This document shows positions 7,737 through 49,964 of a stretch of DNA of 64,000 bases, piece after piece. The DNA comes from an uncultured Actinomycetes bacterium (lineage in GTDB: Bacteria > Actinomycetota > Geothermincolia > Fen-727 > JACVIW01), in NCBI GenBank assembly GCA_937127245.1, contig CAKZLU010000017.1, positions 3,452 to 67,451 on the forward strand, read 5' to 3'. The stretch's first letter is position 1. The number at the start of each line of letters is the position of its first letter. The translations under genes and the position numbers were made by a program. The notes beneath the pieces are model-generated. The model saw only the letters and a program-made list of their open reading frames with translations. It was not told the origin of the DNA and did no database searches.

Positions 7737-8288
7737 ATGGTCCGTATAGACTACGCCAGAGACTCTCTCCTCATCGAGGAGGAGCTTTCCAAGGTCTTCA
7801 ACTTCATCTCCAGGGGCGCACAGTACGAGCGGTGGCACCTCGACTACCACCTCGCCGCTCAGATTATGGATATTAAGGAAGGTGGGGTAGGTTCCGTCTT
7901 CTCCATAGAGAACTCATCGGAGGCTTTTACCTCAAGCACGTGGGAAGGGTAGTGGAGTTCGAGCGCAACCGTAAGTTCGTGTGGCTCGGGAGGTTCGCTC
8001 TCTTTCCCCTGGTTTGGATCGGTACTGACTTCACGTTTGATGAACACAAAAAGGGCATCGTTATTACTGAGATACTCTACTTTAAGATGGCGCCCTGGTG
8101 GCTCATCCTCCTTTCCTTTCCTCGGCTTTAAACCTTACTTTACCCGCTCCGCATGCAAGAAACACATCACTGATGAGCTGACCGGCATAAAGAGGATAAT
8201 AGAGTCGAGGGATTACAACCCCGATGACATAGTTTATCCCCTCGAGGACACAAAGCTCATGTCACGGGTTAAGAAATACAAGGGATGA
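7737..8288 (+). pseudogene. SRPBCC (polyketide cyclase/START-like) family protein, split across three reading frames
   Basis: Three consecutive overlapping ORFs (7737-7952, 7940-8131, 8037-8288) in frames 0/2/0. Together they read as one SRPBCC-like protein, implying two frameshifts. Confidence 0.5.
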
Positions 8289-17554: not shown

Positions 17555-18649
17555 TTACTCCACTTCGAAACAAGGCTCGGCTATTTCATCAATGAACTCG
17601 GGTTTCAAAACATGGAGTAAATCTTTCGCCTGTTCAATTTTTTCTTTCAGTGCCGAGTACGAAATGTATTGACAGCATTCCGACAGCGGCGGTTTTAATC
17701 TCGCAAACGTTGGCCTCATTATTTCTTTAATAACCTTTTCACGCCTCTCCTCTGGCGCAACTATGTACAGTTTTATCTTTATATTCGGTTGCATTGAGAT
17801 AAGATCTGACATTCTAAGAATTCCGCTGTATACCGAACTCGTGTGTTCCACTTCAAACGCCGCAAAGATTGATTTACCATCAAGCCAAACAACATCTATA
17901 TTCTTAATCGTACTATTTGTTGCCTCGTCAAAGTGGAGGGGGATTTCGTCCACGCAGTAATCAGCAAATTTCATTCCTTTGTACTCTTTGTTTTTATCAT
18001 TCCGAGCAACACTTACGTCAAAGCTAAGATTTCTGCCAAGATCAATCAGCAACCACTGGATTTCTTCATGGCTAACTTTAGTCGGCAAACTTTCGATTTC
18101 TGATTCATCCTCCTCGGGAACAGTAACAATGCCCCCTTCGGTTGGATAAGTCGGAAATACTTTGGGAACCCTCCTGTATTTTTTCTCATCATAAGGAAAG
18201 GGCCTTGGATTCTTCTGTGCATTTTCCATCGCTTCTATAACCACACGTGCGTCTTCGGGTTTCATCTTCGCCGGCGATCCCCGAAAATATCCGGTCCATG
18301 CATGGGGGCTTTTCATATCTTGAAAGTACGAAAGCTTATCTTTGAGGTTAAGTATAGGGACTGCATTTTCCGGCTTGAGAAGAATCAATGGCTTGACAGG
18401 GAATCTACACGGAAAAATCTCCTGAGACCATATTGTTTTCTCAGTGTCGTAATAGGTAGGACCAGTCACCTCCAGCAAGCCGATCCACCGTGAAATGCCA
18501 GTACAGTAGCAAAGTAGGTAATCACCGGGCTTTACCTGCTTACAGACCTTTTCTCTTGTTTCCCTGAACCCTGATACGTTGGCCCCTGCCCCGAGAAACT
18601 CATCCCATGTTGTCCCAGTGAACAAGTCAAGCCAGTAACTTCGACCCAT
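17555..18649 (-). CDS. EVE (PUA-like) domain fusion protein; candidate modification-dependent restriction endonuclease
   Basis: The N-terminus (YWLDLFTGTTWDEF...VKPGDYLLCYCTGISRWIGLLEVTG) fits the EVE/PUA-like fold. The C-terminal ~150 aa carry a conserved acidic block (DVVWLDGKSIFAAFEVEHTSSVYSGILRMSDL ... LYIVAPEERREKV) compatible with a nuclease-type domain. The gene is visibly lower in GC than its flanks and has its own terminator. Confidence 0.65.
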   Translation of the reverse strand: MGRSYWLDLFTGTTWDEFLGAGANVSGFRETREKVCKQVKPGDYLLCYCTGISRWIGLLEVTGPTYYDTEKTIWSQEIFPCRFPVKPLILLKPENAVPILNLKDKLSYFQDMKSPHAWTGYFRGSPAKMKPEDARVVIEAMENAQKNPRPFPYDEKKYRRVPKVFPTYPTEGGIVTVPEEDESEIESLPTKVSHEEIQWLLIDLGRNLSFDVSVARNDKNKEYKGMKFADYCVDEIPLHFDEATNSTIKNIDVVWLDGKSIFAAFEVEHTSSVYSGILRMSDLISMQPNIKIKLYIVAPEERREKVIKEIMRPTFARLKPPLSECCQYISYSALKEKIEQAKDLLHVLKPEFIDEIAEPCFEVE

Positions 18650-18937: not shown

Positions 18938-21610
18938 TCATAACCCGTATCCAAACGAGATGTGCCCCCCTGTGATTCCCTTGTTGTAATTGAAATACAT
19001 CGGCCTTTCGACCACGATGGGCAGATCGGAGTTTACGACCACTCCGGCGTCCATGTTCTCCCCCAGAATGCGGTTGACCGAGAAAGTGCCGCGGGAGAAA
19101 GCCTCAACGCTGGCACTGGCGATTGTCCTGACACCATCGCTTCTTATGAAAGTTATCTCCAACCTCACCCTTTTGCCATTCGGGTTGAACACGCTTAGCC
19201 ACTCCTCGAAACCACCCTTACCCCAGCTCCTTGTTGAGCCTTCAGCGAAGTACGTCCTGCATCCGGCGCAAGGCAAGCCGAGGACCGCGTGACCTCCTGT
19301 CAATCCGTTGCGGTAATTGAAATATACGACCCGCTCCCCGACTATTGGTTCGCCGCTTGAAACCTTGATGGAAACATCGCGGTCGAATCCGATTTCTGCT
19401 GGAACGTGCACTGTCACGCGCCTCATCATGGGCACTATCACGTTTTTCCGAACAAGCTGACCTCCCTGAGAGTAGAAGGAGACGGTCGCGTGGGCATCCC
19501 TTTCGCCGGGATTCTGCAGGCACAGCCACTCATCAGCCCACCTGTAAGTGCATCCCTCCGCGAAGTAGAGTTCGTTTGAAGGATTCCTCGCCCCGAGCGC
19601 GCAACTTCCCCCATCCCAGTCCCTACCGTATTTGAAATAGACGGAGCGTTCGGCGACAACAGGAACGGTGCTTGCAATGCGTATACCGAAATCCTTCTGT
19701 GCCCCGAGAACCTGGTTCAAGTTCATCGTATTCCTCGAGAGCGGGGGTACGGTCAGCCTCTTTCCAACCGGGGCTCCGCTCGCCATCAATAACTCCACTT
19801 TCACTTGAGCGCTTTTCTCGGTGGGGTTCAGAACGCAAAGCCTGGTCTCGAAAGCGGTTCCGTCTCCTGTATGCCTGGTCGTCCCTTCAGCGAAATACCA
19901 CTTGGAGGAAGGTTCAGGCGCGCCAACAACAGCGTGTCCTCCGGTCCATTTGTTGCGATAGTTGAAGTACATGACCCTTTCTGCAACCACGGGCTTGTTA
20001 GCTTCAACAATCGCGGATACATCTTTCTGAAGACCTATGTCGCTTGCCACATCTATCGTGAGCCTCGTGTTTCCCCACATCCTGTACAACTTGCGCATCG
20101 GACTCGAACCCCCGGACACAAGGTAGGTCACTGATAGACTCACGTTCTCCTTGTTCGGATTCAATACTGAAATCCACTCGTAGAATTTCCCGTCGGTTTT
20201 ATTCCTCCGGGTGGTCCCTTCAGCGAAATAGTAAGTTCGGGAAAGACCCGGCATGAAATGGACTTTGTTTGAGCTCCCATAAGAAGTGACAACATACACC
20301 TCTCCCTTGCGGGCGCCTTCCGGGACGCTCAAGACAATCTCTGAAGATGACCAGGTAATAGTATCACCACGCCTTACTCTTATTCCGCAGAACGAGACGT
20401 ACGATTCCGCGCCAGAACCCGCAAGCGCGCTCTCCGTCGGGAAGGAGCCGAGGATTCTTACCCTCGCGCCGATATGGGCGCTTGCAGGCTCTATCCCGTC
20501 GATCCAGGGACCAACCGGGTGTTTCCAAACTTGAAACCCGTAAGGGTTGCCCGTCCCAACAATGTAGTTATTTTTGAAAAGATAGGGTATGAGTATTATG
20601 TTGTTCGGATCGCCAAGACCAGCCTTGCCCCACTGCACGAAACCACCCTGAGCAGATGGTTTGTATAGGACGCCCGTCCCAGATGGACCATTTTTACCAA
20701 AGCCCAGCACTGAAAAGTAAGGCTTATTATTCATAACCACAGGAAGAATAACTGAACTCTCCTTAATGTTAACCCCCGTTTTCACCTTGACCCATGTCCT
20801 TCCGTCATACCTCCACAGCTGAGCACCTGCTGGATTGGCGGTCCCCGCGTATAGGAAATCCTTTGAAGCAGACATGAGAAAACAATCCACGTTTTGTTGC
20901 TCACCGAAGCCAGGCTGAGCGGTCTGTTTCCAAACTCCACTCCCCTCATAGCACAGTGGGATCATCATGCCCGCACCCTCTAATCTTGCGACGAGATGTA
21001 TTTTCCCCTTGTACATAGCGGGGATACAAATCCCGGTGGCGCCCACGCCAAATCCGTCTTCGTTAACTCTCGCAAACTTACTGCCATCGAACGACCACAC
21101 CTTCGCACCGTATTCCCAGTCGCCAACACCGATCAGGAGCCTGTCATTCTGAACCCCGAGCGGATAACATTCACCCCTTGCCGTATCGATTATTCCCTTG
21201 CCTATGTTTTCCCAATTCTTCCCATCCTTTGTGCGCCACAATTGAGCTCCACTGTACCTCGTGGTCGTTCCGCAGTAGAAGTAGCCCTTGTAAACAGGTC
21301 CGGGGAAAAACGCGATGTTGTTCTTGTCCCCGAAGCCATCGGTCGCCGCTTTTTTGAAGCTTATCCCATCGTATTTCCAGATAGGCACCGTTTTGGCGCT
21401 TTCGTCTTCTGAGCCGGGCACCATAAAATAAAGACCGCCATTGAACTCGGTAATCGGGAACATCATGGGGATTTCAGGGTTATCTATACCCTTATCCGCG
21501 ATCTTCTTCCACGGCTCGCTCGCTGGTGCTTCAGCCAGGAATACGCAAGAAAAAGACAGGCTTGAAGCGAGAAAGATAGCATAGAAAATCCAGAAATTTG
21601 ACCGCTTCAT
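18938..21610 (-). CDS. large secreted protein: signal peptide, beta-propeller-like repeats, IPT/TIG domain and 4 C-terminal YFAEGTT...NPN repeats
   Basis: Likely start MKRSNFWIFYAIFLASSLSFS (signal peptide) at 21610. Repeated W..DG.....GFG blocks are followed by a TIG-like segment (VRILGSFPT...VSFCGIRV), then four ~110-aa repeats each beginning (Y/W)YFAEG(T/S)T and containing L.VLNPN. Confidence 0.7.
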   Translation of the reverse strand: MKRSNFWIFYAIFLASSLSFSCVFLAEAPASEPWKKIADKGIDNPEIPMMFPITEFNGGLYFMVPGSEDESAKTVPIWKYDGISFKKAATDGFGDKNNIAFFPGPVYKGYFYCGTTTRYSGAQLWRTKDGKNWENIGKGIIDTARGECYPLGVQNDRLLIGVGDWEYGAKVWSFDGSKFARVNEDGFGVGATGICIPAMYKGKIHLVARLEGAGMMIPLCYEGSGVWKQTAQPGFGEQQNVDCFLMSASKDFLYAGTANPAGAQLWRYDGRTWVKVKTGVNIKESSVILPVVMNNKPYFSVLGFGKNGPSGTGVLYKPSAQGGFVQWGKAGLGDPNNIILIPYLFKNNYIVGTGNPYGFQVWKHPVGPWIDGIEPASAHIGARVRILGSFPTESALAGSGAESYVSFCGIRVRRGDTITWSSSEIVLSVPEGARKGEVYVVTSYGSSNKVHFMPGLSRTYYFAEGTTRRNKTDGKFYEWISVLNPNKENVSLSVTYLVSGGSSPMRKLYRMWGNTRLTIDVASDIGLQKDVSAIVEANKPVVAERVMYFNYRNKWTGGHAVVGAPEPSSKWYFAEGTTRHTGDGTAFETRLCVLNPTEKSAQVKVELLMASGAPVGKRLTVPPLSRNTMNLNQVLGAQKDFGIRIASTVPVVAERSVYFKYGRDWDGGSCALGARNPSNELYFAEGCTYRWADEWLCLQNPGERDAHATVSFYSQGGQLVRKNVIVPMMRRVTVHVPAEIGFDRDVSIKVSSGEPIVGERVVYFNYRNGLTGGHAVLGLPCAGCRTYFAEGSTRSWGKGGFEEWLSVFNPNGKRVRLEITFIRSDGVRTIASASVEAFSRGTFSVNRILGENMDAGVVVNSDLPIVVERPMYFNYNKGITGGHISFGYGL

Positions 21611-22190
21611 ATGACCACTCCGATCTCGCCTCTGAACTTCTGTCTTGCGGCGACACACCTCTGCTTCAAAGCATTTTTGCTCACATAAGATAATTCGGCA
21701 TTTAGACTTCATTTCTTTTCCCGTTAGCGCTATTTACCGATAATCACTTTAAGGCTCCCCTACACGTCTTCCCGTAAGAGAGGTATTCGCGCGTGGAGGT
21801 GAAAACGAATCAGCGGGTGATAATAGGAATCATCCTTTTTCCTTCAAAAGACGAAGACATTTCCCCAATTCTGCCTGTTAATTCATCTATTGGAAATAGT
21901 AAACATTCTTCTTCCTTAAAAAGACGGGGCTCAAAGCATGTGAAGGTGAAGAGATATATCCACCACGCTCACGACGGTCTGGTACGAGGCACTAGGCATG
22001 TTAGGGTGAATATGAATGGGTTCACGGTTATGCCCGTTTTGGACACAAGAAACCGAGTAGGACCTCACAAAACCGCATCAACCTGTTAAATATAAATACT
22101 TACCTTAGTTTCCCCGCCAAAAGAGCGAGTATGACGAAGAAAATCCGCGCCCTGAGCTTCGCGTCATTCCCTAAGCGAAAAACTTCTTAC

Positions 22191-33981: not shown

Positions 33982-36900
33982 TCAGTCGCTGTAACCGCCA
34001 ATCGTCGCCGTGCCCATGAACATCCCGTACCCCTGAATGAGCGCGTACATCGCGCGTTCAACCATTATCTTCTTCCCCGCTGTCTTCGAACTCACCATCA
34101 CGGAGGCGCGACCGTCCTGTATGACGTCCGCCATAAAATAGGTTTTTCTCGAGTTCGCCGGCACCGTGTCGGTTATCGATTTTTCCCCGGAACCGTCCTC
34201 GGGTAGATACGTTACCTCGACCGCAACCTCTTGATCATTCGGGTTCTGAACGAGAGTCCAGGTTTGAACCTCGCCCATCAGACCAGCCTCGGGATGCATG
34301 CCCGCTTCTCCATCGGGAAGATAGAAAGTCTTATGCGCGGCAGAAAGACCGATAGAATCGTGGCACTTCTCCCCGAAAATAGTCCCCTCCCCCCAGTACA
34401 TGGCGCGTTCGGCTATTATCGGTCGGTCGCCCGTCACTTTCGTTGAGAAGTCCCTTGGTGGAAGATAGTCATTGACCCTGATTGTTTTTCTCGAGTTGGG
34501 CGGCATGAGAATGGGGCTTTCAGGGTGAGTTATCGGACCCTCGTTCGTCATGTAGGTGAGGACCACGCTCGTAGGCTCGCTGTTTGGGTTTTGTACCAGA
34601 ACATACGTTGTGAAACCCCAGGCGGTCGTCCCCTCAGCAAGGTAATAGTTCAAGGAGGGAGAGGTTGTGCCCACCGAGTCATGTCCGCTTTTTCGATTGT
34701 TTCTATACATTGCCCTCTCGGGGATAACGGGTAAATTCGAGCTAACTTTTATTGAGGCGTCTTTTGCACCTATGTGCTCGGCCATGTTGAAAGTTGCGCG
34801 AGAGTTTGCCGGCACAGAAACCTTCACGCTTGAGGGACCTTCGTTCTCAATCATGTAGGTTATATCGCAGCTTGCCGTACTGCTGTTCGGATTCTGGATA
34901 AGAAGCCAGCACTCGAAGCCCCAGGCTGTGGAGCCCTCCGGCAGATACCAGGTTTTAGCCGGAGAGGTCACGCCTATTGAGGAGTGAGCGTCCCCTATGT
35001 CCTCCTCCAAACCCCAGAACATCGTCCTGTCAACCGCGATTGTTTTCCCCTCAAGGCACTCGACCTTTGTGGAGAAATCTTCCTCTCCCAGATCCTCCCA
35101 TGGGAAGATTGTGGCTTGGCTCATCGGAGCCATCCTGAAATCGGGCTTAACAACCGGACCGCTTTTCGTCTGATATGTCATGCGAATCGTAACTTCCGTG
35201 GAGTTCGGGTTCGCGATAGATATATAAGTCTCGAAGCCCCAGTCGGTGGAACCCTCCGCCAGATACCATGTGGATAGCGGATTCTTTTGAACGACCGTAA
35301 AGCTCTTTGAATTTGATTTTCCACCCGCGGTAGTGACCGTCACAGCAACTTTTCCAGAAACGCCGGTCGGAACTTTCACCTTCAAGCGGTTGTTCGCCCA
35401 TGAGAGATAACTTGACACCCTCTTTGTGCCGAAGCTCACATATGAGGAGCCCCTCGTAGAACCAAATCCGGACCCGTATATGGTGACATTGGCACCCGCG
35501 CTTCCGCTACTTGGCGACAAAGATGAAATGACCGGTTTTGGCAGAGCGGTAATTTTTTTAAGGGCAGCATATGCATTTATCCGCCCGTAACCGAAATAAT
35601 CATCCCGACCGGACGCCCCTAAATCTTTCGCTGTGCTTTCAAGCGTTTGCTGAACTTTCAAGGGCGTAAGGGAGGGTTTTTCAGATAAAAGCAGGGCTGC
35701 GCTGCCCGCCGCCATGGGAGAAGCCATGGATGTGCCATCCATAAAAGAGTAATTCTGAGTATATCCGAGAGCATTCAGGCTCGCGCTGTAGGTGGGCATC
35801 GCGGAATAGATGTCCTTGCCGGGCGCCGAGATGTCCACGCTCGAGTTGTATGTCGAGAAGACAGCCCTCTCGTCCCTGTTCGTGGTAGCGCCAACCCCAA
35901 TCACATTCGAATAGCCCGCCGGATACATGAGCGTGGAGTCCGAGGTGTTGCCCGCCGAAGCGAATATCGCAGCACCTTTGCCGTAAGCATAAGTGATTGC
36001 GTTCTGGACAAGCGAAGAGTGGGATTCGCTCTGCAAACTCATGTTTATGACGTCAGCACCGTTATCCGCGGCATAGTAAATGGCATCAATTATGTGGGAC
36101 GCATAAGCTCCGCCGCTTGAGTCAGTGACTTTCAGGGGCATAACCCTGACTTTCAAACCAGGCGCAACGCCCACAACCCCCTGGGCGTTCTCAGAGGCAG
36201 CCACTATTCCAGCGCAGTGCGTTCCGTGCGCGTTATTGTCATGGGGATAGAAGTAAGGGTTTGTCCTGAAGTAAAAGTCTTTAGCGTAGAGGGAGGTCCA
36301 TCCAGACCCCGTCCACTGCCACGCCTCTCCCTCGTGATAAGTATGCCACGTACCTTCTTCCGTTCCCCAGTTGTCGTAGATACGGTAGTAATCTGAGGCG
36401 CTCGCCTGACTTGTCCAGAAGATAAGGTAGTAAGGAAGTCCCGCGTCAAGGTTAAGTGGTGTCGATAGTGCTTTGTAGATTTCGGTGATCCCTGTTGAGG
36501 AAATCTCTGAATAATCTATCACGTACGATGAAAGGTCCGATCCGGTAAGTGAGGTGCGGACGACAACATTTATCGGTAAAGTGGGGTTTCCTATCTTCCT
36601 CAAGGCTATTCCAACGTGGGTAAGCCTCTGTTTATGTCCCGGGGTAGCCCGAGCCGTAAACGATTGGGCAAACATCTGCTGAGTAATACTGGTGCCGAAA
36701 TTTTCATACGAGTTCACCCATGCGCTTCCGTTCCAGTACGTGCAGTTGTACTGGGAGATACCCGCCCAGTTATACCCGTTCCTATCGTCAACAAAACCGT
36801 TCCCATCATCATCCAACCCATTCCCCGCAGTTTCGTCTGAGTTCACCCAGATTCTCGAGGAAAGATCGGGATGGGAAAAATCAATGCCGGAATCGATGAC

Positions 36901-37425
36901 GGCGACCGTGACATCGTTGGAGGTTCCTTTTTCGATATCCCAGGCATCAGGCGCATCAATGTCGGCATCCGCAACCCCAACAGACCCCCCTATTACTTGA
37001 CCGGTGTTATGCAACCCCCACTGCTTTGGAAAATCAGGGTCAGTCGGAGTGTGAGCAATCTTGTATATGAAGTTGGGCTCGGCATACTCGATCATGTGGC
37101 TGGAGGAAAGTTCTTGAACCGCTTTTTCAACACTCACGCCGGGTTTAAGTTTCAAAACCTCAATATCCTTTTTGTCGCGTGGACCTATCTTTCCTAAAAC
37201 GGATGCGCCAGCCTCTGATTTAATCTCGTCGGCTGAGGATTTCCTTATACCTTCTTTAAACTTCACAAGTACCTCGCCAGGCTTATAGACGCATAAAGGC
37301 GTGCCGGGCATCAGACCGCTGGCCTTAGCCAAAAGTTTGCCCGGTGAGGAAGTGGCATGAGAAGTTAACGGAAAACCAAGTGTAATTAGATGAAGCAAAA
37401 TAAGAATGCATAATAAACGTTTCAT
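33982..37425 (-). CDS. secreted S8 family subtilisin-like serine protease with PA-like insert, TIG domain and 4 C-terminal YLAEGST...NPN repeats
   Basis: ATG at 37425 with a GGAGG RBS and signal peptide MKRLLCILILLHLITLG. Propeptide, catalytic triad segments VAVIDSGID / HGTHCAGIVAA / GTSMASPMAAG, an IPT/TIG-like segment (VISSLSPSSGSAGANVTIYGSGFG), then four ~110-aa repeats beginning (W/Y)YL(A/P)EG. Confidence 0.9.
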   Translation of the reverse strand: MKRLLCILILLHLITLGFPLTSHATSSPGKLLAKASGLMPGTPLCVYKPGEVLVKFKEGIRKSSADEIKSEAGASVLGKIGPRDKKDIEVLKLKPGVSVEKAVQELSSSHMIEYAEPNFIYKIAHTPTDPDFPKQWGLHNTGQVIGGSVGVADADIDAPDAWDIEKGTSNDVTVAVIDSGIDFSHPDLSSRIWVNSDETAGNGLDDDGNGFVDDRNGYNWAGISQYNCTYWNGSAWVNSYENFGTSITQQMFAQSFTARATPGHKQRLTHVGIALRKIGNPTLPINVVVRTSLTGSDLSSYVIDYSEISSTGITEIYKALSTPLNLDAGLPYYLIFWTSQASASDYYRIYDNWGTEEGTWHTYHEGEAWQWTGSGWTSLYAKDFYFRTNPYFYPHDNNAHGTHCAGIVAASENAQGVVGVAPGLKVRVMPLKVTDSSGGAYASHIIDAIYYAADNGADVINMSLQSESHSSLVQNAITYAYGKGAAIFASAGNTSDSTLMYPAGYSNVIGVGATTNRDERAVFSTYNSSVDISAPGKDIYSAMPTYSASLNALGYTQNYSFMDGTSMASPMAAGSAALLLSEKPSLTPLKVQQTLESTAKDLGASGRDDYFGYGRINAYAALKKITALPKPVISSLSPSSGSAGANVTIYGSGFGSTRGSSYVSFGTKRVSSYLSWANNRLKVKVPTGVSGKVAVTVTTAGGKSNSKSFTVVQKNPLSTWYLAEGSTDWGFETYISIANPNSTEVTIRMTYQTKSGPVVKPDFRMAPMSQATIFPWEDLGEEDFSTKVECLEGKTIAVDRTMFWGLEEDIGDAHSSIGVTSPAKTWYLPEGSTAWGFECWLLIQNPNSSTASCDITYMIENEGPSSVKVSVPANSRATFNMAEHIGAKDASIKVSSNLPVIPERAMYRNNRKSGHDSVGTTSPSLNYYLAEGTTAWGFTTYVLVQNPNSEPTSVVLTYMTNEGPITHPESPILMPPNSRKTIRVNDYLPPRDFSTKVTGDRPIIAERAMYWGEGTIFGEKCHDSIGLSAAHKTFYLPDGEAGMHPEAGLMGEVQTWTLVQNPNDQEVAVEVTYLPEDGSGEKSITDTVPANSRKTYFMADVIQDGRASVMVSSKTAGKKIMVERAMYALIQGYGMFMGTATIGGYSD

Positions 37426-37752
37426 TTTTCCTCCGTAAAAATTAGCTAGCTCGATAAACTTTCCCACAAAATCTAGATTCTGTCATTTTTAAAACATTTG
37501 TGTCGAACATCGACAGACCTGTTTTCGAGCTTGACCATGATCCAAGAGTCATTCGAGGGTTTGAGAGATTCCCGTGTCGAGAATTCTCGCATCACCCGAA
37601 AGAGTGATTTTGTTAATCCAAAATCTCCGTGTTAGAATAAAAAGGTTGCAAAAGAAAGATGCGACAACGAAGAAAGTCTTTAAGAAATATTTTCTAAAAC
37701 TCCTCTTCGTTTCCCTATCTTTTACGCGTCAGACCTCATTTGACGACAACTT

Positions 37753-40269
37753 GTGTATTTAAAAGAGTGCGTTTTTGCATTAGGAAAGGAGAAAAGGAAA
37801 ATGAAAAAAACAATCAAATCAGTATCTCTGCTTTTGGCACTTCTTATGCTTGTTCTGTGCGCTTTCATCCCTGGTTTGGCTGCCGAAAATGAAAGCTCCA
37901 CAAGCGTTCTTGAGAAAGGCACAGCTCGCTTAGACCCCGCCCAAGAACCAATAGCCCTCAACACAGGAGAGGTGATAGTCAAATTCGAGGAGGGTGTAAC
38001 AAAAGACCGCATGTCAGGGATATGCTCTGGCGCGGGGGCATCCTCCATATTGAAAAGAATCGGACCGGAAACTTAGAGAACGTATCTTTTAAAGTTGAAA
38101 CCGGAAGTGAGTTTGAGCAGCGCCATTGAATCCCTTAACGCAAGTGACGGGGTGGCGTTTGCCGAACCAAATTACTTAAGGAAATTATTGTACACTCCTT
38201 CGGATCCTGATTTCCCAATACAATGGGGTCTTCATAACACCGGGCAAACCATTGGGGGTGTTCCGGGAACCCCTGATGCTGATATCGATGCTCCAGAGGC
38301 ATGGGATGTTGAAAAGGGAAGCAACTCCACTGTATATGTTGCCGTGATCGATTCAGGAATTGATCTTAACCACCCCGACCTTGACGGAAGGATCCGCGTG
38401 AACACCTACGAAATCCCAGGGAACAACAAGGATGATGAAGGTAACGGATATGTTGATGACGTAAACGGGTACAACTTTGCCGGGATTTCACAGTACAGAT
38501 ACTATTATTACGTTGGAAGTACTATATACTATACGTTCTGGTACTTTGGTCGCTATACAATAACGCAGATGCTCGCCCAGTCTTTCACCGCGCGCGCGAG
38601 CAGCGGTCACAAGCAAAAGCTCACGCACCTGGGCATTATGCTCAGCAAAATCGGAAATCCAACGTCCACTATAACGGTTTCAGTCCGTTCTTCTCTTTCC
38701 GGTTCTGACCTCGCATCCTTTACCATCTCCCCTGGTGAGGTAATAAGCAGGGAGGTCTACAAGAGATTTTCCAAAGAACTCTACCTAACACCCGGGAGCA
38801 CTTACTACTTCGTTTTCCGTACCGACAGCGTTGACTCCTCGAACTACTATCATCTAGGCCATAATGCAGGCAGTGTTTCAGAAAATTACCACACCTACCA
38901 CGAGGGGACTGAATGGCAGTGGAACGGCTCAGACTGGGTTGAATGGCCCAAAGACGACTTCTACTTCAGGACAAATCCTTACTTCTATCCCCATGACAAC
39001 AACGGTCACGGAACGCACTGCGCAGGGATAATAGCCGCGGAGAATAACAATGCGGGTTGTGTTGGCGTGACACTTGGCAACAACGTGAAGATCATGCCCA
39101 TAAAAGTCGGTGACTCGAGCGGCTGGCTGAGAGATGACCATATTTTGGAGTCGATTTATTATGCCGCCGATAACGGCGCGAAAGTCATAAGCATGAGCTT
39201 TGGTGGTTCGGTGTATTCAAGCGCAGAACAGGATGCTGTCAATTACGCCTACAACAAGGGAGCAATTCTTTTTGCCTCCGCCGGAAATTCCGGTGATTCC
39301 ACCATGCGATACCCCGCAGGTTACGCGAACGTTGTAGGGGTCGGTGCGACAACCAACAAAGACGAGAAAGTAACATTCTCAACGTACAACTCGAGCGTTG
39401 ATTTATCAGCACCCGGAAAGGACGTCTATTCAACAATGCCGACATACCCGGTTTGCGGAAATGATTTAGGCTACACGCAGAATTACTCATACATGTCCGG
39501 GACCTCCATGGCTTGTCCGATGGCAGCCGGGCTTGCCGCGCTTATACGCTCAAGGAACCGCTCCTGGACGGCGGCTCAAGTTCAAACTGCAATGCAGAAC
39601 AACGCCGATGACCTTGGGACACCGGGCAGGGATGACTACTTCGGTTACGGGAGGATAAACGCCAAAAGGACGATCGACACCGTTCCCCTTCTGCCCGTCC
39701 CGGCAATCTCAACCATAAACCCCACAATGGGATACGTGCGCTCAGAGGTAACAATATCAGGAAAGAATTTTGGATCGACCCGCGGAAGCTCTTACGTAAA
39801 GTTCGGGACAAAGAAGGTCACAGCCTATGTATCCTGGAGCTCCACGAAAATCAAGGTGAAAGTTCCTGACGGTGTCTCGGGAGAAGTGCCTGTGAAAGTA
39901 TATACACTCGCTGGAGGGTCCAACTCAAAAGTCTTCAGCGTGAAACCAAAGATAAATGCGATATCACCGATTTCGGGTTCCATCGGCTCCTACGTGACGA
40001 TCTCCGGAAGGGGATACGGCTCTCTGAGAGGTACCTCATATGTGACATTTGGAAGCAAGAGGGTATCAACTTACTCAAGCTGGACTGATACAAAACTAAA
40101 AGTGAAGGTACCCTCAGGAATTCCAAAGGGTAAGACAACCACAAAGGTGACAACATCGGGAGGGGAAAAACCTCAAAGCAATAATGGAAAAGATGTGAGC
40201 CATGGAATTACAACTGAAGATGCTATAGCGGAGCATAACCCGCATAAGCAATCCACGAAACATATGTGA
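37753..40269 (+). pseudogene. S8 subtilase paralog with an in-frame TAG (38074-38076) in the propeptide; catalytic domain plus two TIG domains
   Basis: ORF 37753-38076 encodes the signal peptide (MKKTIKSVSLLLALLMLVLCAFIPGLAA) and propeptide (GEVIVKFEEG). It is in the same frame as ORF 38095-40269 (DSGIDLNHPD, HGTHCAGIIAAE, GTSMACPMAAG, two TIG-like domains), separated by a single TAG. Homologous position in the paralog: GKIGPRDKKDIEVLKLKPGVS. Confidence 0.6.
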
Positions 40270-43772: not shown

Positions 43773-44159
43773 CTACTTAGGAATGCCGTGTTTCGAGCAT
43801 TTCACCTGCGGGGGATCGCCGGGAATCCATATGTATTTACCGCCCTCAGGGCAGCTGCCCATAGTACCTGCAAGGTATGGCACTTTTTTAAGGTCCTCAA
43901 GGCTCTTCGGGTATTCCCCTTTTTCCTCCTTGTACGCTTTTATTGCCCCATCAATCGAGCGCTGATTCATGTAGCATATTTCTTCGGGCGACAGTTTAGC
44001 GCCCTTCCTGCCACAACTACCCGAAAAAAGCGCAAGGACAGCGACCGAAATCATACAGGCAATCGTAAACAGTGCCGCGACCTCTCTGCGCCTGACAAGC
44101 ATCTTCATCACCCCGCAAGACCTCACCGACAACGCTGAAACTCGATACTTAAATACCAC
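43773..44159 (-). CDS. small membrane-anchored protein with a pseudopilin-like C-terminal motif
   Basis: Probable start MKMLVRRREVAALFTIACMISVAVLALFSG (internal Met; signal/anchor). C-terminus AIKAYKEEKGEYPKSLEDLKKV...SCPEGGKYIWIPGDPPQVKCSKHG. Confidence 0.5.
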   Translation of the reverse strand: MVFKYRVSALSVRSCGVMKMLVRRREVAALFTIACMISVAVLALFSGSCGRKGAKLSPEEICYMNQRSIDGAIKAYKEEKGEYPKSLEDLKKVPYLAGTMGSCPEGGKYIWIPGDPPQVKCSKHGIPK

Positions 44160-44455: not shown

Positions 44456-45112
44456 TTGAGTAATAAGATAATGAACGAGCTCAAGACAGCGGAAAAACTG
44501 AGGCACTATCGTAATCTACTCACCGCTTTGGAGGTGACCGAAATGGCATCAAGGATGGGAAGGAAATACGCCTCAATAATCATTACGCTTTTTGCCATTG
44601 TGGTTATTCTCATTATCCCGGTAACGGCTCAACCTTTCGGTCGTGAGTTTACCTCAAGTCTTTCCTCGGTTCCCGTCCGCACTCGACAAGAAAAGGCAGA
44701 GGAATGGAAGGAGCGCGTACGTCAGCGCGTTACTTTGATAATCCAACGATATGAGGCAAACAAAACGCGACACATAGAAAACTACAATCGAATTAAGGAG
44801 AAATTGAAGCAAATCGTTTCCGAGATCGAAAAATTGGGCCTGGACGTATCGAAACTGCGCGAATCCTGTCAGAAACTCGAAGAGATGATACTTATTTGCG
44901 CCAAGGATTATGAGACCTTCATCGCAAAACTAAGAGAGATACTAAACCTTGGACCTCAGGAGCCGGCATACAAATACAGGCAGATCATATCGGAGGCGAG
45001 GGCTCTTTTCAAAATATTCAGGGCTAACCTAAGGCAAGTTCGCACGTTTTTCAAGACGAACATCCATCCAGAAATCATTCGTCTCAGAAACGAAATTTCC
45101 TCAGGCGCTTAG
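44456..45112 (+). CDS. hypothetical membrane-anchored coiled-coil protein
   Basis: 218 aa with one TM helix followed by a charged helical region. No motifs. Confidence 0.4.
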   Translation: MSNKIMNELKTAEKLRHYRNLLTALEVTEMASRMGRKYASIIITLFAIVVILIIPVTAQPFGREFTSSLSSVPVRTRQEKAEEWKERVRQRVTLIIQRYEANKTRHIENYNRIKEKLKQIVSEIEKLGLDVSKLRESCQKLEEMILICAKDYETFIAKLREILNLGPQEPAYKYRQIISEARALFKIFRANLRQVRTFFKTNIHPEIIRLRNEISSGA

Positions 45113-45164
45113 AAACAATCTTGAGGAGCGTGACAGACGGGAATAAGATCAGAGGAGGAGACGG

Positions 45165-45467
45165 ATGGGCGATAAAAGAAAAGCCTCAGGTTTGCTTCAA
45201 TCCATTATTTCATTTTTGATTCTTACGGCGCTCCTTTTCGGAGTGTGCTTCCTTCTTTCCTCTTGCAGGAAATCCAGCGCGCCAGGGGACTTAGGCGAAG
45301 GAAAGAAAGCGGAAAGGGACGCGTCTTCAGAAAAAATAAAAAGCGCTGAGACTATCGAGAAATTAGACGAGATCGTGCGTGACATAGACAATGTGCTTAA
45401 TGGTTTGAACGAAAACGATTTCAGCGAAAACGATCTTGTCGAAATTGAGTCGGAAATAGGTAGGTAG
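45165..45467 (+). CDS. small putative lipoprotein
   Basis: 100 aa with a hydrophobic N-terminus ending LLSSC (lipobox-like), then a charged tail. Confidence 0.35.
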   Translation: MGDKRKASGLLQSIISFLILTALLFGVCFLLSSCRKSSAPGDLGEGKKAERDASSEKIKSAETIEKLDEIVRDIDNVLNGLNENDFSENDLVEIESEIGR

Positions 45468-46537: not shown

Positions 46538-46743
46538 TCTTTTTGGAGGGAAATTCCCACAGTCTCAGAACTCTGCGCGAAATCAAACCAGTATCGTGCG
46601 CTAACCCAATTAGTGAATCTTTAAATCCGCAAATTTATCACTAGGGGATTGGACATATTATAGTATTTTTTTAACATATTTATTGGCGGCATCATTTGTG
46701 TTTTATTTGGAAAGATCCAATCCTTGAGCTAAAGGGGGTTCAT

Positions 46744-47154
46744 ATGGCTAAACTTACCGAGGTTGTTGATTCTTTTTTAAATGAGATGGGAATCGATCCC
46801 CGAAAATGCACAAACAGCGCTTTCCCTTTCTGTCGCTTTCTTAAAGTTGAAAACGCTGAGATGGTTGTAATCGCTCGGGAAGACCCCGGACTCGGGAGAA
46901 CCCTCGGTTTCGTGGGAAAGTTGGATGATTACACGCCAAAAGAACCGGAAAGATATTACCGCGAGCTTCTCATGCTCAACTTCGAGCTCATACACGGCGC
47001 ATTTGCGATCGACAGAAAGACAAACAAAGTGGTGGTGATAGACAACCTCCAGGCTGACCATATCGACTTTGACGAATTCTACGCCTCGGTAAGAAGGGTA
47101 CTCGAGGTAGCCTCTAGGTATAACATGAAGGTTAAGGAGGGTTACTTTGATTGA
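46744..47154 (+). CDS. YbjN-like / T3SS-chaperone-like small protein
   Basis: About 136 aa from MAKLTEVVDSFL. Pattern LLMLNFELIHGAFAIDRKTNKVVVIDNL is typical of the YbjN putative sensory-transduction-regulator fold. Confidence 0.45.
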   Translation: MAKLTEVVDSFLNEMGIDPRKCTNSAFPFCRFLKVENAEMVVIAREDPGLGRTLGFVGKLDDYTPKEPERYYRELLMLNFELIHGAFAIDRKTNKVVVIDNLQADHIDFDEFYASVRRVLEVASRYNMKVKEGYFD

Positions 47155-48208
47155 CATCGGACCGATTAAGCCAGCCGCGGGGAAGGCAAAGGATTTCGAG
47201 GACTTAATCAAGAGCGCAAGGGTCATGCTTTGCTCGCCTTACGGCGAATGCGATATTCCACATGAAAACATTGGTGCGTTTGTCAATAGAATAGAAACGC
47301 TTCCCGTTAAACCAGCATTCGAAGCCGAATTATGCTCGGATTCAACGGAATCGTGCTGGAGCCAGTTGGTCAAAATCTATGACGCTTTGCTCGGTAAACA
47401 CATAGAGCGCTTGCTTGAAGAGATTTCTTCAGTCCATAGAAAAATTCTCGACACCATTATCCTGGAACATGGGATCAAAAGCGATTCCCTCCAAGATGAT
47501 ACCATTGCCTGCCTGCGCGCGGCTTTTTATCTTCTGCGCATAAAAAAAGAATGCCTAAATCGGCATCAAGTTGACCAGGCTTGTATAGCGATAGAAGCTT
47601 TCAAGGGACTCGAAATTGAGATAAAGCAGAAGCTGAAGCCACGTATCGAGGAGCGTTACGACCTTCTTAGGCAATCGGTCAACATAATCACTGAAGAAGG
47701 GAAAGTTGACGATATTGTGGATCACTTACACAAAAATAATTTTTTAAACGTAAAAGAGGGGATGATCAAACCAGTCACTTCCGTCATCGATGACATAAGA
47801 AGCGGGCTTGAGGCCCGAAAAATTACAGAGGGTATGTTCAAGTGCGCATTGATTCTTGCCCTTTTCGGGCATGAATACACATATAAATCGAGTCTCACGG
47901 GCATGCCTATCGCGATTTCCAACCCGCTTGGATGTGAATTAACAAACCCTGAAGGAAAGAAGATATCATGGATATGCAGGAAATTTTGTTCGCTTCAAAA
48001 GATGCGAAACGAGCTCGTTCACGAAAAAACTTACGTGCCTACCAAATCCAGAGTGGAGAAAGTTAACGAAATCGTGACGGACTGCATAGAGGTGCTATCC
48101 GTCCTACAGGATTTGAAGTTCATACCCTTTGAGCCCAAGGGCTCCCCCTCGTCTCGCAGTAAAGAGGTCACCTCTGACAAGACGAATGTTTCGGGGCGGA
48201 AAGAGTGA
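47147..48208 (+). CDS. hypothetical protein with a C-terminal HEPN-like R-x4-H motif; translationally coupled to the upstream gene
   Basis: TTG start at 47147 overlaps the upstream stop by 8 nt, with AAGGAGGG 6 nt upstream. The C-terminal MRNELVHEKTY...VEKVNEIVTDCIEVLSVLQDL matches the HEPN R[ND]xxxH signature followed by a terminal helix. Confidence 0.5.
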   Translation: MIDIGPIKPAAGKAKDFEDLIKSARVMLCSPYGECDIPHENIGAFVNRIETLPVKPAFEAELCSDSTESCWSQLVKIYDALLGKHIERLLEEISSVHRKILDTIILEHGIKSDSLQDDTIACLRAAFYLLRIKKECLNRHQVDQACIAIEAFKGLEIEIKQKLKPRIEERYDLLRQSVNIITEEGKVDDIVDHLHKNNFLNVKEGMIKPVTSVIDDIRSGLEARKITEGMFKCALILALFGHEYTYKSSLTGMPIAISNPLGCELTNPEGKKISWICRKFCSLQKMRNELVHEKTYVPTKSRVEKVNEIVTDCIEVLSVLQDLKFIPFEPKGSPSSRSKEVTSDKTNVSGRKE

Positions 48209-48336
48209 CTGCGTGGAAAACTTATTAATCTTTTCAAGGCGACTACCGTCAAAGGTTTCTCACGTTCTCCTTGGTTCTGTTAGTATTAAACAACAGGAAT
48301 TGGAAAAGGTCCGGTCTTTTATGGTCCCTTGCGCAA

Positions 48337-48978
48337 ATGAGCCATCAAGATTTCGTTATCAGACCGTTCGAACCTGAAAAAGACCTCGAAGCCGCATACA
48401 AATGCTATGTCAGCGGATTCTATCACTGCCTATGGCCGCTCATCGATCACGCTGAAAAGAGGTTCACTCATGAAATCATACTCATGTCACATGCGATTTC
48501 CGACGTTTCTCTCATCGCAGAGGCGGACGGCGAGGCCCGCGGTATCCTCATGGGATTTTTCCCGCGTGAACTAAAATCCCTCCTGAGGGCAGCCCTGCAT
48601 TCAATAGCTTTCAACGTGCAGGTTTTACTAAGAAAGTACAAAATGAGTCCTTTCGCCAAAGCAGCGTACTGGCAGGGCATTCGCGGAGACCTTTCAAATA
48701 TATTGCACGGAACTGAATCGGTTGCGGAGGTTCTACTTCTGACCTCGCAGAAGGATTACCGGAAAGGTATCGGCACGGCGCTGATGGATGCCTGGGTAGA
48801 GGAGGTTAGAAAGCGCGGTTACAAAAAGACGACTCTCTGCACCGACTCCACCGTAAACTGGAGGTTTTACGAGAAGTACGGTTTTAAAAGAATAGCAGAA
48901 TACCCTTTGAAATCATTCTATTACGCGCTTCCCGGGGTGGATGTTACCGGCTACAGATATGTTCTTGAACTCGATTAG
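48337..48978 (+). CDS. GNAT family N-acetyltransferase
   Basis: Sequence is RKGIGTALMDAWVEEVRKRGYKKTTLCTDSTVNWRFYEKYGFKRI (acetyl-CoA binding motif A region). The frame opens at 48271. Confidence 0.7.
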   Translation: MSHQDFVIRPFEPEKDLEAAYKCYVSGFYHCLWPLIDHAEKRFTHEIILMSHAISDVSLIAEADGEARGILMGFFPRELKSLLRAALHSIAFNVQVLLRKYKMSPFAKAAYWQGIRGDLSNILHGTESVAEVLLLTSQKDYRKGIGTALMDAWVEEVRKRGYKKTTLCTDSTVNWRFYEKYGFKRIAEYPLKSFYYALPGVDVTGYRYVLELD

Positions 48979-49052: not shown

Positions 49053-49964
49053 ATGGTTCAGGTTGACATTTTTTGGTCCTACGCTATCGGCTCCAGTTTC
49101 GCGCTTTCCGCTTTCCGCCAGTTAAGAAAAATCACGCGGGAAAATCCGCCGAAAACTAATGATTTCAACTGGCGGGATTTCAGACGCATGGTGCGCGAAA
49201 TTGAGCATGGGGGCGCTGCATTCCACAATCCGTACTTCCTTAAAACGCTTCTATTCCTTTCTCTTCTCTTCGTGCCATCAGGCGCGGTGCTACTATGGTC
49301 AAACCCCGAATGGGAAACGATGCAGGTCGGTCGCTACGAGACCATTCCGGGATGGCTTGTGGGAGCCTTCACCATAACTAACGTGACCCAGGGGATTTTA
49401 GGATACTGGGTCACATACAACCTCCTTATGAAAGGAAAGTATTTCAGAGCCGCTCTTCAAGTGGTTCTCTCTTATTTTGGTTTCTGGTTCATACTGGTAA
49501 ACGGGTGGGATAAGACCGGTTACAGGCGTTTCTTTTCCAGGTCAAGAGGAGAGTTTGAAAACTGGCGTCCGTCAAACGTTTTCAGGTGGCTTTCAAGTGA
49601 CGTGGTAAGAATCCTTTTGTTCTTCGGAATAGGCTTTATACCGCTGATGCTTTACTGGACATCAAAGTGGTTAATGGAGGGCGCTATAAACAAAGGAATA
49701 ATTGAGCCGCTTACCCCAGCAGAGCGAAAAAGTAGGATGCTGAAAATTTCCGGAAAGCTTCTCGGAGCGGTCGCGGGAACCACTCTCGGGCTTGCCATCT
49801 GCTCAACCGCGCTCATAAGAAAGCTTGGGTGGGTAGCGGGGACAGCCGCCTCTGCGGCGTTCATTTACGCAGTCGTATTTCGAGACGGTAGCCTTGCTCG
49901 CAGGCTGACAGAGGAAATCATGATGGTCGACACCCTCGAAGTGCCCTGCGTGCTGGAAGGCTAA
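49053..49964 (+). CDS. hypothetical multi-pass membrane protein
   Basis: 303 aa with at least 6 hydrophobic helices. No motifs. Confidence 0.5.
   Translation: MVQVDIFWSYAIGSSFALSAFRQLRKITRENPPKTNDFNWRDFRRMVREIEHGGAAFHNPYFLKTLLFLSLLFVPSGAVLLWSNPEWETMQVGRYETIPGWLVGAFTITNVTQGILGYWVTYNLLMKGKYFRAALQVVLSYFGFWFILVNGWDKTGYRRFFSRSRGEFENWRPSNVFRWLSSDVVRILLFFGIGFIPLMLYWTSKWLMEGAINKGIIEPLTPAERKSRMLKISGKLLGAVAGTTLGLAICSTALIRKLGWVAGTAASAAFIYAVVFRDGSLARRLTEEIMMVDTLEVPCVLEG

Follow-up and report, generated by a model that had tools for sequence, protein, structure and literature searches.

HEPN RNases are recurrent effectors of bacterial immunity and of toxin-antitoxin systems, in which they are controlled by nucleotidyltransferases, small binding proteins, or CARF sensors. 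The present analysis concerns a 64,000-nucleotide stretch of DNA from an uncultured Actinomycetes bacterium (assembly GCA_937127245.1, contig CAKZLU010000017.1; hereafter the window, meaning the whole stretch of 64 kb), in which two overlapping genes encode a 136-aa chaperone-type protein and a 353-aa protein with HEPN motifs. The pair is interpreted, with a probability of about 50%, as a two-gene conflict module (toxin-antitoxin or abortive infection), in which a divergent, metal-independent RNase of the HEPN type would be combined with a chaperone of the class known from type III secretion systems (T3SS) and the YbjN family.

Several described systems share parts of this arrangement. In HepT-MntA (a type VII toxin-antitoxin system), the gene of the small partner likewise comes first and overlaps that of a toxin carrying R-N-x3-H, and the MRNELVH of the window protein can be set beside MRNKLIH and MRNILVH in the HepT proteins of two such pairs that adjoin a homologue of the present locus (L007). 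However, the partner in the window is a T3SS/YbjN-type chaperone and not a nucleotidyltransferase, with no NTP_transf_2 (MNT) match in the Pfam search, while the HEPN protein, extended at its N-terminus and interrupted by an insert of about 100 aa, is three times the size of HepT, and neither the HxY part nor a Pfam HepT match is present in it. In the class I layout of T3SS, a chaperone gene adjoins the gene of its client, and the N-terminus of the client is unstructured. The window pair follows this layout, combining a small acidic chaperone of the CesT/Tir type, a gene adjoining that of the presumed client, and a client N-terminus predicted to be unstructured, but differs from T3SS chaperone-effector pairs in that the client bears RNase signatures, that one homologue lies in a defence island, and that no secretion apparatus was found among the window reading frames scanned. 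Toxin-antitoxin-chaperone (TAC) modules of the HigB-HigA-SecB-like type contain a dedicated chaperone within the toxin module, which has the SecB fold and acts on the antitoxin; here, in contrast, there is no sign of a separate antitoxin, and the toxin itself would be the target of the chaperone. The CARF-HEPN proteins Csx1 and Csm6 show marginal similarity to the window protein over the HEPN core from helix-2 to helix-4 and a comparable motif variant, RNxxxHS, yet the CARF sensor domain and the CRISPR context are missing from the window locus, and the similarity is too weak for membership.

RnlA-RnlB and LsoA-LsoB are anti-phage systems in which a small protein restrains a multidomain HEPN RNase toxin (about 350 aa) by binding it directly (PMC8266594, PMC3710099), but there the toxin gene precedes that of the antitoxin, which has no relation to CesT/YbjN; no similarity to either system was found in PADLOC, Pfam, and PDB searches. 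Iyer et al. reported TY-Chap1-3 in predicted immune systems centred on ADP-ribosylglycohydrolases (2022; PMC9503650), which resemble the present locus in the recruitment of T3SS/YbjN-superfamily chaperones to immunity, but which are built on ADP-ribose-processing enzymes and for which no HEPN pairing is described. The literature searched yielded no pairing of a HEPN protein with YbjN, CesT, or a T3SS chaperone, and PMC9503650 was the only paper returned; this agrees with the initial annotation of the locus, made from the sequence alone, whose author knew of no YbjN-HEPN pairing. The module resembles both HEPN toxin modules and T3SS chaperone-effector pairs and is a member of neither.

The chaperone gene and the HEPN-motif gene share 8 nt (TTGATTGA), with the chaperone stop codon TGA at 47152-47154. 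Both reading frames, their overlap, and the strong ribosome-binding site inside the upstream gene had been proposed in the initial annotation and were recovered as described, with AAGGAGGG preceding the TTG codon (Table 1). The TTG start of the larger protein is backed by its homologues, whose N-termini begin at the equal alignment position. Judged from this layout, the two genes are translationally coupled. The pair is co-directional and overlapping (by 8 or 11 nt, according to the locus), with the small acidic protein encoded first, as in type II toxin-antitoxin modules. Two sigma-70-like promoter candidates sit in the 206-nt gap between a divergent hydrolase gene and the chaperone gene; they are candidates only, the count of such sequences being no higher than chance (2 found, 3.0 expected in shuffled sequence).

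Table 1. Positions of the chaperone/HEPN-motif gene pair and its sequence features in the 64-kb window
Feature	Positions	Strand	Remarks
Sigma-70-like promoter candidates (two, overlapping)	46635-46677	+	TTATCA-18-TATAGT; TGGACA-16-TAACAT
136-aa chaperone-type gene	46744-47154	+	ATG start
Shine-Dalgarno sequence AAGGAGGG	47134-47141	+	within the chaperone gene; 5 nt lie between it and the TTG of the HEPN-motif gene
353-aa HEPN-motif protein gene	47147-48208	+	TTG start, 8-nt overlap with the chaperone gene
N-terminal segment predicted to be unstructured (codons 1-67), proposed chaperone-binding region	47147-47347	+	predicted local distance difference test (pLDDT) <50 even with alignment
EAFKGLEIEIK (codons 150-160), with E156-x3-K160 fitting Ex3[KR]	47594-47626	+	in helix 145-169
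RNELVH (codons 287-292), candidate catalytic R-N-x3-H	48005-48022	+	end of helix 273-292

The pair is conserved as a unit across highly divergent relatives, which are very few. In a word-indexed search of 5.8 billion cluster representatives, the 353-aa protein matched itself only; an exhaustive HMMER pass over 1.84 billion representatives yielded four relatives, and a profile search yielded two more. Among about 15 billion proteins, the family comprises only four deep lineages: the window protein, P0004 (32% identical), the clade of P0005, P0008, P0009, and P0007 (24-26%), and P0006 (about 27%). Two scans of species-representative genomes with both proteins as queries returned no relatives, as did two scans of viral contigs and the plasmid searches, and a metagenome scan re-found only contig L008. 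To judge from these searches, members of the family are extremely scarce and patchily distributed, as is typical for accessory conflict genes.

At every locus retaining upstream DNA, in three lineages, a chaperone homologue lies directly upstream of the HEPN-motif gene and overlaps it. L007 has a complete 137-aa chaperone, 44% identical to that of the window; L004, L005, and L006 have a chaperone gene overlapping by 11 nt; and L008 retains the C-terminal part of one with the same 11-nt overlap. Even the 50 nt available upstream in L009 encode ...EYDDRLKEEFGES, and in the P0004 loci L010-L014 the chaperone ends in ...KVGEGYFD, nearly as in the window. The geometry of the junction is shared as well. 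The window and the P0004 loci L010-L014 have the TTG/TGA overlap of 8 nt in the form TTGAnTGA, and the called ATG of P0004 probably lies 24 nt too far upstream; in the third clade (L004-L009, L007 included), AAGGAGGA is followed by a GTG start and the overlap is 11 nt. AAGGAGG precedes the start at matching spacing in the window and in L004-L009, with a weaker G-rich version in the P0004 loci. The P0006 contig begins within the HEPN-motif gene, and its upstream side is unreadable and stands outside this count. Because the same chaperone gene is found directly upstream wherever upstream DNA exists, the two genes are, on comparative grounds, a conserved unit. The search for co-occurrence that had been proposed with the initial annotation accordingly finds the genes kept as neighbours in every readable locus, at 24-32% identity of the HEPN-motif protein.

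The small protein can be assigned to a family. It matches Pfam CesT_Tir_1 (PF22550) with an E-value of 5.3e-11 and 43 bits, above the cut-off of 27, and has sub-threshold matches to YbjN (15 bits against a cut-off of 22) and, also below threshold, to CesT. Because of the CesT_Tir_1 match above the cut-off and the sub-threshold YbjN and CesT matches, it is placed by sequence in the T3SS class I/YbjN ('TY') chaperone superfamily, and the initial description of a YbjN/T3SS-chaperone-like protein is borne out. Additionally, precomputed PF22550 matches exist for P0002 and P0003, and the partner protein of L007 matches CesT, CesT_Tir_1, YbjN, and, weakly, TY-Chap1. The closest profile match in the PDB is the structural-genomics protein Tll0839 (2plg), with an E-value of 0.13. 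The window chaperone has a mass of 15.8 kDa and an isoelectric point of 5.3, against isoelectric points of 4.2-4.3 in its homologues; the chaperones in general are acidic proteins of about 15.5 kDa. It is 43-66% identical to the partner proteins of the homologous loci, and the block HGAFAxD...DNxQADHxDFDEFYA is invariant across the chaperones.

The assignment of the larger protein depends on its motifs and their placement. HEPN domains are defined by an Rx4-6H motif in which the arginine is followed by N, D, or H, a polar residue, and a second conserved feature is an acidic residue, typically in the form Ex3[KR], in helix-2 (PMC3710099). Both signatures are present in the 353-aa protein. R287, N288, and H292 of the first, together with Q284, are invariant in all six aligned members despite identities of 24-32%, and around the second, E150, A151, K153, E156, I157, and K160 are invariant in the same alignment. 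Among the window reading frames of 150 aa or more, which total 19,025 aa, RNxxxH occurs only once, and its chance expectation per 353 aa is about 0.02 (about 0.06 for R[NDH]xxxH); by itself, the motif is weak evidence, and its weight rests on its invariance across homologues.

An AlphaFold model computed with the alignment reached a predicted template modelling score (pTM) of 0.68 and a pLDDT of 80-93 over residues 100-330, and is mostly helical; a model from the single sequence had a pLDDT of 40 and was unusable. In the alignment-based model, helices 117-139 and 145-169 form a first hairpin, the second of them carrying Ex3K, and helix 273-292, which ends in RNELVH, is followed by a loop (293-299) and helix 300-320. 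An insert of some 100 aa (170-272), which contains helices as well as three short strands, separates the two hairpins. Apart from this insert, the motifs are placed as in the HEPN layout of PMC3710099, on helices 2 and 3. Profile comparison points in the same direction: the only PADLOC matches for any family member were to CARF-HEPN models (E 0.007 and 0.003), located in the first hairpin of the window protein and in the C-terminal part of P0006, where the motif is RNDYAH. When the insert was removed, the CARF-HEPN E-values of two members improved about ten-fold, to 6.2e-4 and 4.2e-4, which is still marginal, and the insert-less window protein aligned with the CARF-HEPN model from helix-2 through the motif into helix-4. 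A DUF3336 match (E 0.02-0.06) from the family searches was discarded as chance.

From the sequence and the model together, the 353-aa protein probably contains a divergent HEPN domain with a large insert, spanning approximately residues 115-325. The initial annotation had recognised a C-terminal HEPN signature by comparison with HepT. MRNELVHEKTY is indeed present and its RNxxxH invariant, but the HxY part of the HepT motif is unmatched. The domain had also been located to residues 250-353, and this boundary has to be revised: helices 1 and 2 with Ex3K would lie at 117-169, before the insert, and helices 3 and 4 at 273-320.

In L007 (GCA_015711715.1), the pair stands immediately after two MNT/HepT pairs and an NYN-domain gene, and precedes a DUF3800 gene, a DruE-like helicase (E 1.5e-86), and a DpdE/DrmD-like SNF2 protein (E 3.8e-198). 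These surroundings are, by gene content, a defence island. The same island (L007:3258-17910) also holds a separate MZB (DUF1998) protein after the DruE-like helicase, and a 1346-aa gene. The HEPN-like gene of L007 carries a 1-nt frameshift in a G-run (7820-7920) beside an intact chaperone gene, so that 239 aa are called and the C-terminal part lies in a separate 123-aa open reading frame in another frame. The gene may be a true pseudogene, or the frameshift may come from a faulty assembly; a frameshifted HEPN gene next to an intact chaperone is a hint of a toxin that is harmful without its antitoxin. The opposite kind of lesion occurs in the P0009 lineage, where an in-frame TAG replaces CAG (Gln) in the chaperone gene in two independent samples (L005:47-460 and L006:3-209) and the HEPN gene is intact, so that either the loss of the chaperone is tolerated there or the stop codon is read through. 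Inactivating changes in either gene, in different lineages, look typical of dispensable accessory modules. A further chaperone allele at L001:513-977 is 96% identical over residues 66-119 to the chaperone encoded upstream of P0004 and differs from it at the C-terminus (...NAVAGFLWTAHSDS), and the 72 nt left after it contain no HEPN-like gene; the allele may be an orphan or rearranged copy, or the contig may be chimeric.

These features can be combined into a model of how such a module would work. Coupled translation, with the stop codon overlapping the start and a strong ribosome-binding site, would ensure that the chaperone is present while the RNase emerges from the ribosome. By analogy with class I T3SS chaperones, the chaperone would then grip the conserved N-terminal segment of about 65 residues, which is predicted to be unstructured and in which the motif P-[IM]-K-P-[AG]-G-x2-A-x-[DS]-[FY] is kept in the three lineages with an available N-terminus. 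The bound protein would be stable and yet inactive, for example through prevention of the dimerisation that HEPN RNases generally need. If the chaperone were lost, titrated, or displaced, for instance during phage infection, the RNase would be freed to cut RNA, and growth would stop. The model takes the 353-aa protein to be a metal-independent RNase and a toxin, and the chaperone to act by inhibition rather than by stabilisation; control in the opposite direction, with the chaperone required for the stability or activity of the HEPN protein, is a possible alternative that fits the nonsense allele better. An extension of the model, more speculative and on balance rather doubtful, is that the chaperone doubles as a sensor, so that a phage protein or an unfolded peptide competing for its groove would free the RNase and induce abortive infection; this would be a module class not described before, gated by a TY chaperone in place of a classical antitoxin.

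The interpretation as a conflict module draws on the conservation of the pair, the identity of the chaperone, the invariant signatures, the CARF-HEPN matches, the L007 context, rarity together with decay, and the conserved unstructured tail. Several results weigh against it. No HEPN family match was obtained in Pfam, NCBIfam, or PDB sequences for the full protein, for each family member, or for the insert-less core; hhalign against the two L007 HepT proteins aligned only the 15-residue motif, with a probability of 6-10%; and Foldseek comparison of the alignment-based model with PDB and viral models (BFVD) gave only noise, such as farnesyl-diphosphate synthases and flagellin. The model itself rests on an alignment of six sequences, and a phmmer search of the PDB with one L007 HepT, for a larger reference alignment, found nothing. 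On the side of the partner, the chaperone is better conserved (43-66%) than the HEPN-motif protein (24-32%), the reverse of many toxin-antitoxin pairs, and its Pfam search showed no DNA-binding domain for autoregulation (helix-turn-helix, ribbon-helix-helix, or AbrB), a domain that type II antitoxins typically, though not universally, have. Since a nonsense allele is tolerated beside an intact HEPN gene, the chaperone does not appear to be an indispensable antitoxin, and the TAG allele argues against a strictly essential antidote. Finally, the neighbours of the pair in the window are metabolic and form no defence island.

Some of these points bear equally on the alternative that survives best, in which the chaperone serves a client that is not a nuclease: a non-toxic helical protein with a regulatory or structural role, dependent on a YbjN-type stabiliser and using RNxxxH and Ex3K for binding or for structure. 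In favour of such a client are the lack of any significant sequence or structure match to a HEPN family, the metabolic neighbourhood in the window, and the tolerated nonsense allele of the chaperone; moreover, YbjN-family proteins are general protein stabilisers outside secretion, as cited in PMC9503650 (see also PMC5398634). Against it, both HEPN signatures are invariant and sit on the expected helices, the only weak matches are to CARF-HEPN models, L007 places the pair in a defence island, and the very sparse, patchy distribution is that of accessory conflict genes. A client of this kind is considered less likely than a conflict module.

A true secretion chaperone with its effector, in which a type III or other system would carry the HEPN-like protein into another cell and the chaperone would deliver it by way of the protein's N-terminal signal region, is considerably less plausible. 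It would account for the membership of the chaperone in the CesT/Tir-chaperone Pfam family and for the adjacency of its gene to that of a client with an unstructured N-terminus, which is classical for class I T3SS chaperones. However, neither the 37 window open reading frames that were scanned with Pfam nor the called genes of L004 and L007 include genes of a secretion system; the gene content, with iron-sulfur proteins and acyl-CoA metabolism, suggests anaerobic environmental bacteria, which are not known T3SS hosts; and the L007 context is one of intracellular defence. A three-gene module, with the downstream GNAT acetyltransferase as a second toxin or as a modifier of the RNase, is very improbable, for although the GNAT gene lies next on the strand of the pair, no terminator being predicted between them, and GNAT toxins (TacT/AtaT type) are known in toxin-antitoxin systems, it is separated by a 128-nt gap, has no translational coupling to the pair, and has a counterpart downstream at none of the homologous loci.

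The GNAT gene (Acetyltransf_1, E 1.5e-7) does follow the pair, as the initial annotation stated; its inclusion in the module did not stand, given that gap and its absence from the homologous loci. Gene callers start it at the ATG at 48337 (213 aa), from which the gap is derived, and an alternative TTG start at 48271 would give 235 aa (48271-48978); model matches cover only the C-terminal acetyl-CoA-binding part of this reading frame and not its N-terminal 150 aa. The GNAT was rejected as a third component on the grounds that the genes downstream of homologous pairs are never GNATs and are none of them alike: unrelated family-less proteins in L010/L011 and in L015, small reading frames and a dehydrogenase in L004, and, on the opposite strand, the DUF3800 gene in L007. 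The region had also been described as AT-richer than its flanks. The pair has a GC content of 45.8% against a window mean of 49.9% (standard deviation 2.9), the 7.5th percentile of equal-sized windows; this difference is marginal and not significant, the segment at 44.0-45.7 kb being equally AT-rich, and AT-richness was therefore dropped as an indication of horizontal transfer. The surroundings of the pair contain no tRNA, Rfam family, flanking repeat, or mobile-element gene.

In the window, the pair is flanked by genes for a hydrolase, the GNAT, a membrane protein of the AF_1499 family, and a phosphomannomutase, and the rest of the 64 kb encodes ordinary metabolism, transport, and two large subtilases. 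The AF_1499 protein (49053-49964), directly after the GNAT, is a predicted membrane protein of 303 aa that belongs to a recently defined Pfam family (PF27259). The subtilases (S8) are divergently encoded at 33982-37467 (-) and 38095-40269 (+) and carry TIG/IPT domains; one of them combines a fervidolysin-like prodomain with a DUF5719 segment, and further DUF5719/ASRT-like segments are found in a 924-aa reading frame at 18938-21712. At 44456-45467, where the GC content is about 44%, there are two family-less proteins, one of 218 aa with a coiled coil and an N-terminal membrane helix and the other of 100 aa with a signal or membrane segment, and a ComGC-like pseudopilin gene (43773-44159, -) lies just upstream of this stretch. 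A 364-aa reading frame at 17555-18649 (-) has a sub-threshold match (E 0.0014) to the EVE domain, a modified-base or RNA-binding module that is often found in conflict systems.

The pair is small, at 1.5 kb, and its importance is limited by its rarity, since it occurs in a handful of metagenomic lineages. What would be new is the partner, which is of a class not known from other two-gene HEPN modules. If the interpretation is true, control of a HEPN effector by a secretion-type chaperone would be a new principle, in which a toxin is held by its unfolded tail. It would also give the CesT/YbjN superfamily, which is poorly understood outside secretion, a cytoplasmic, non-secretory role.

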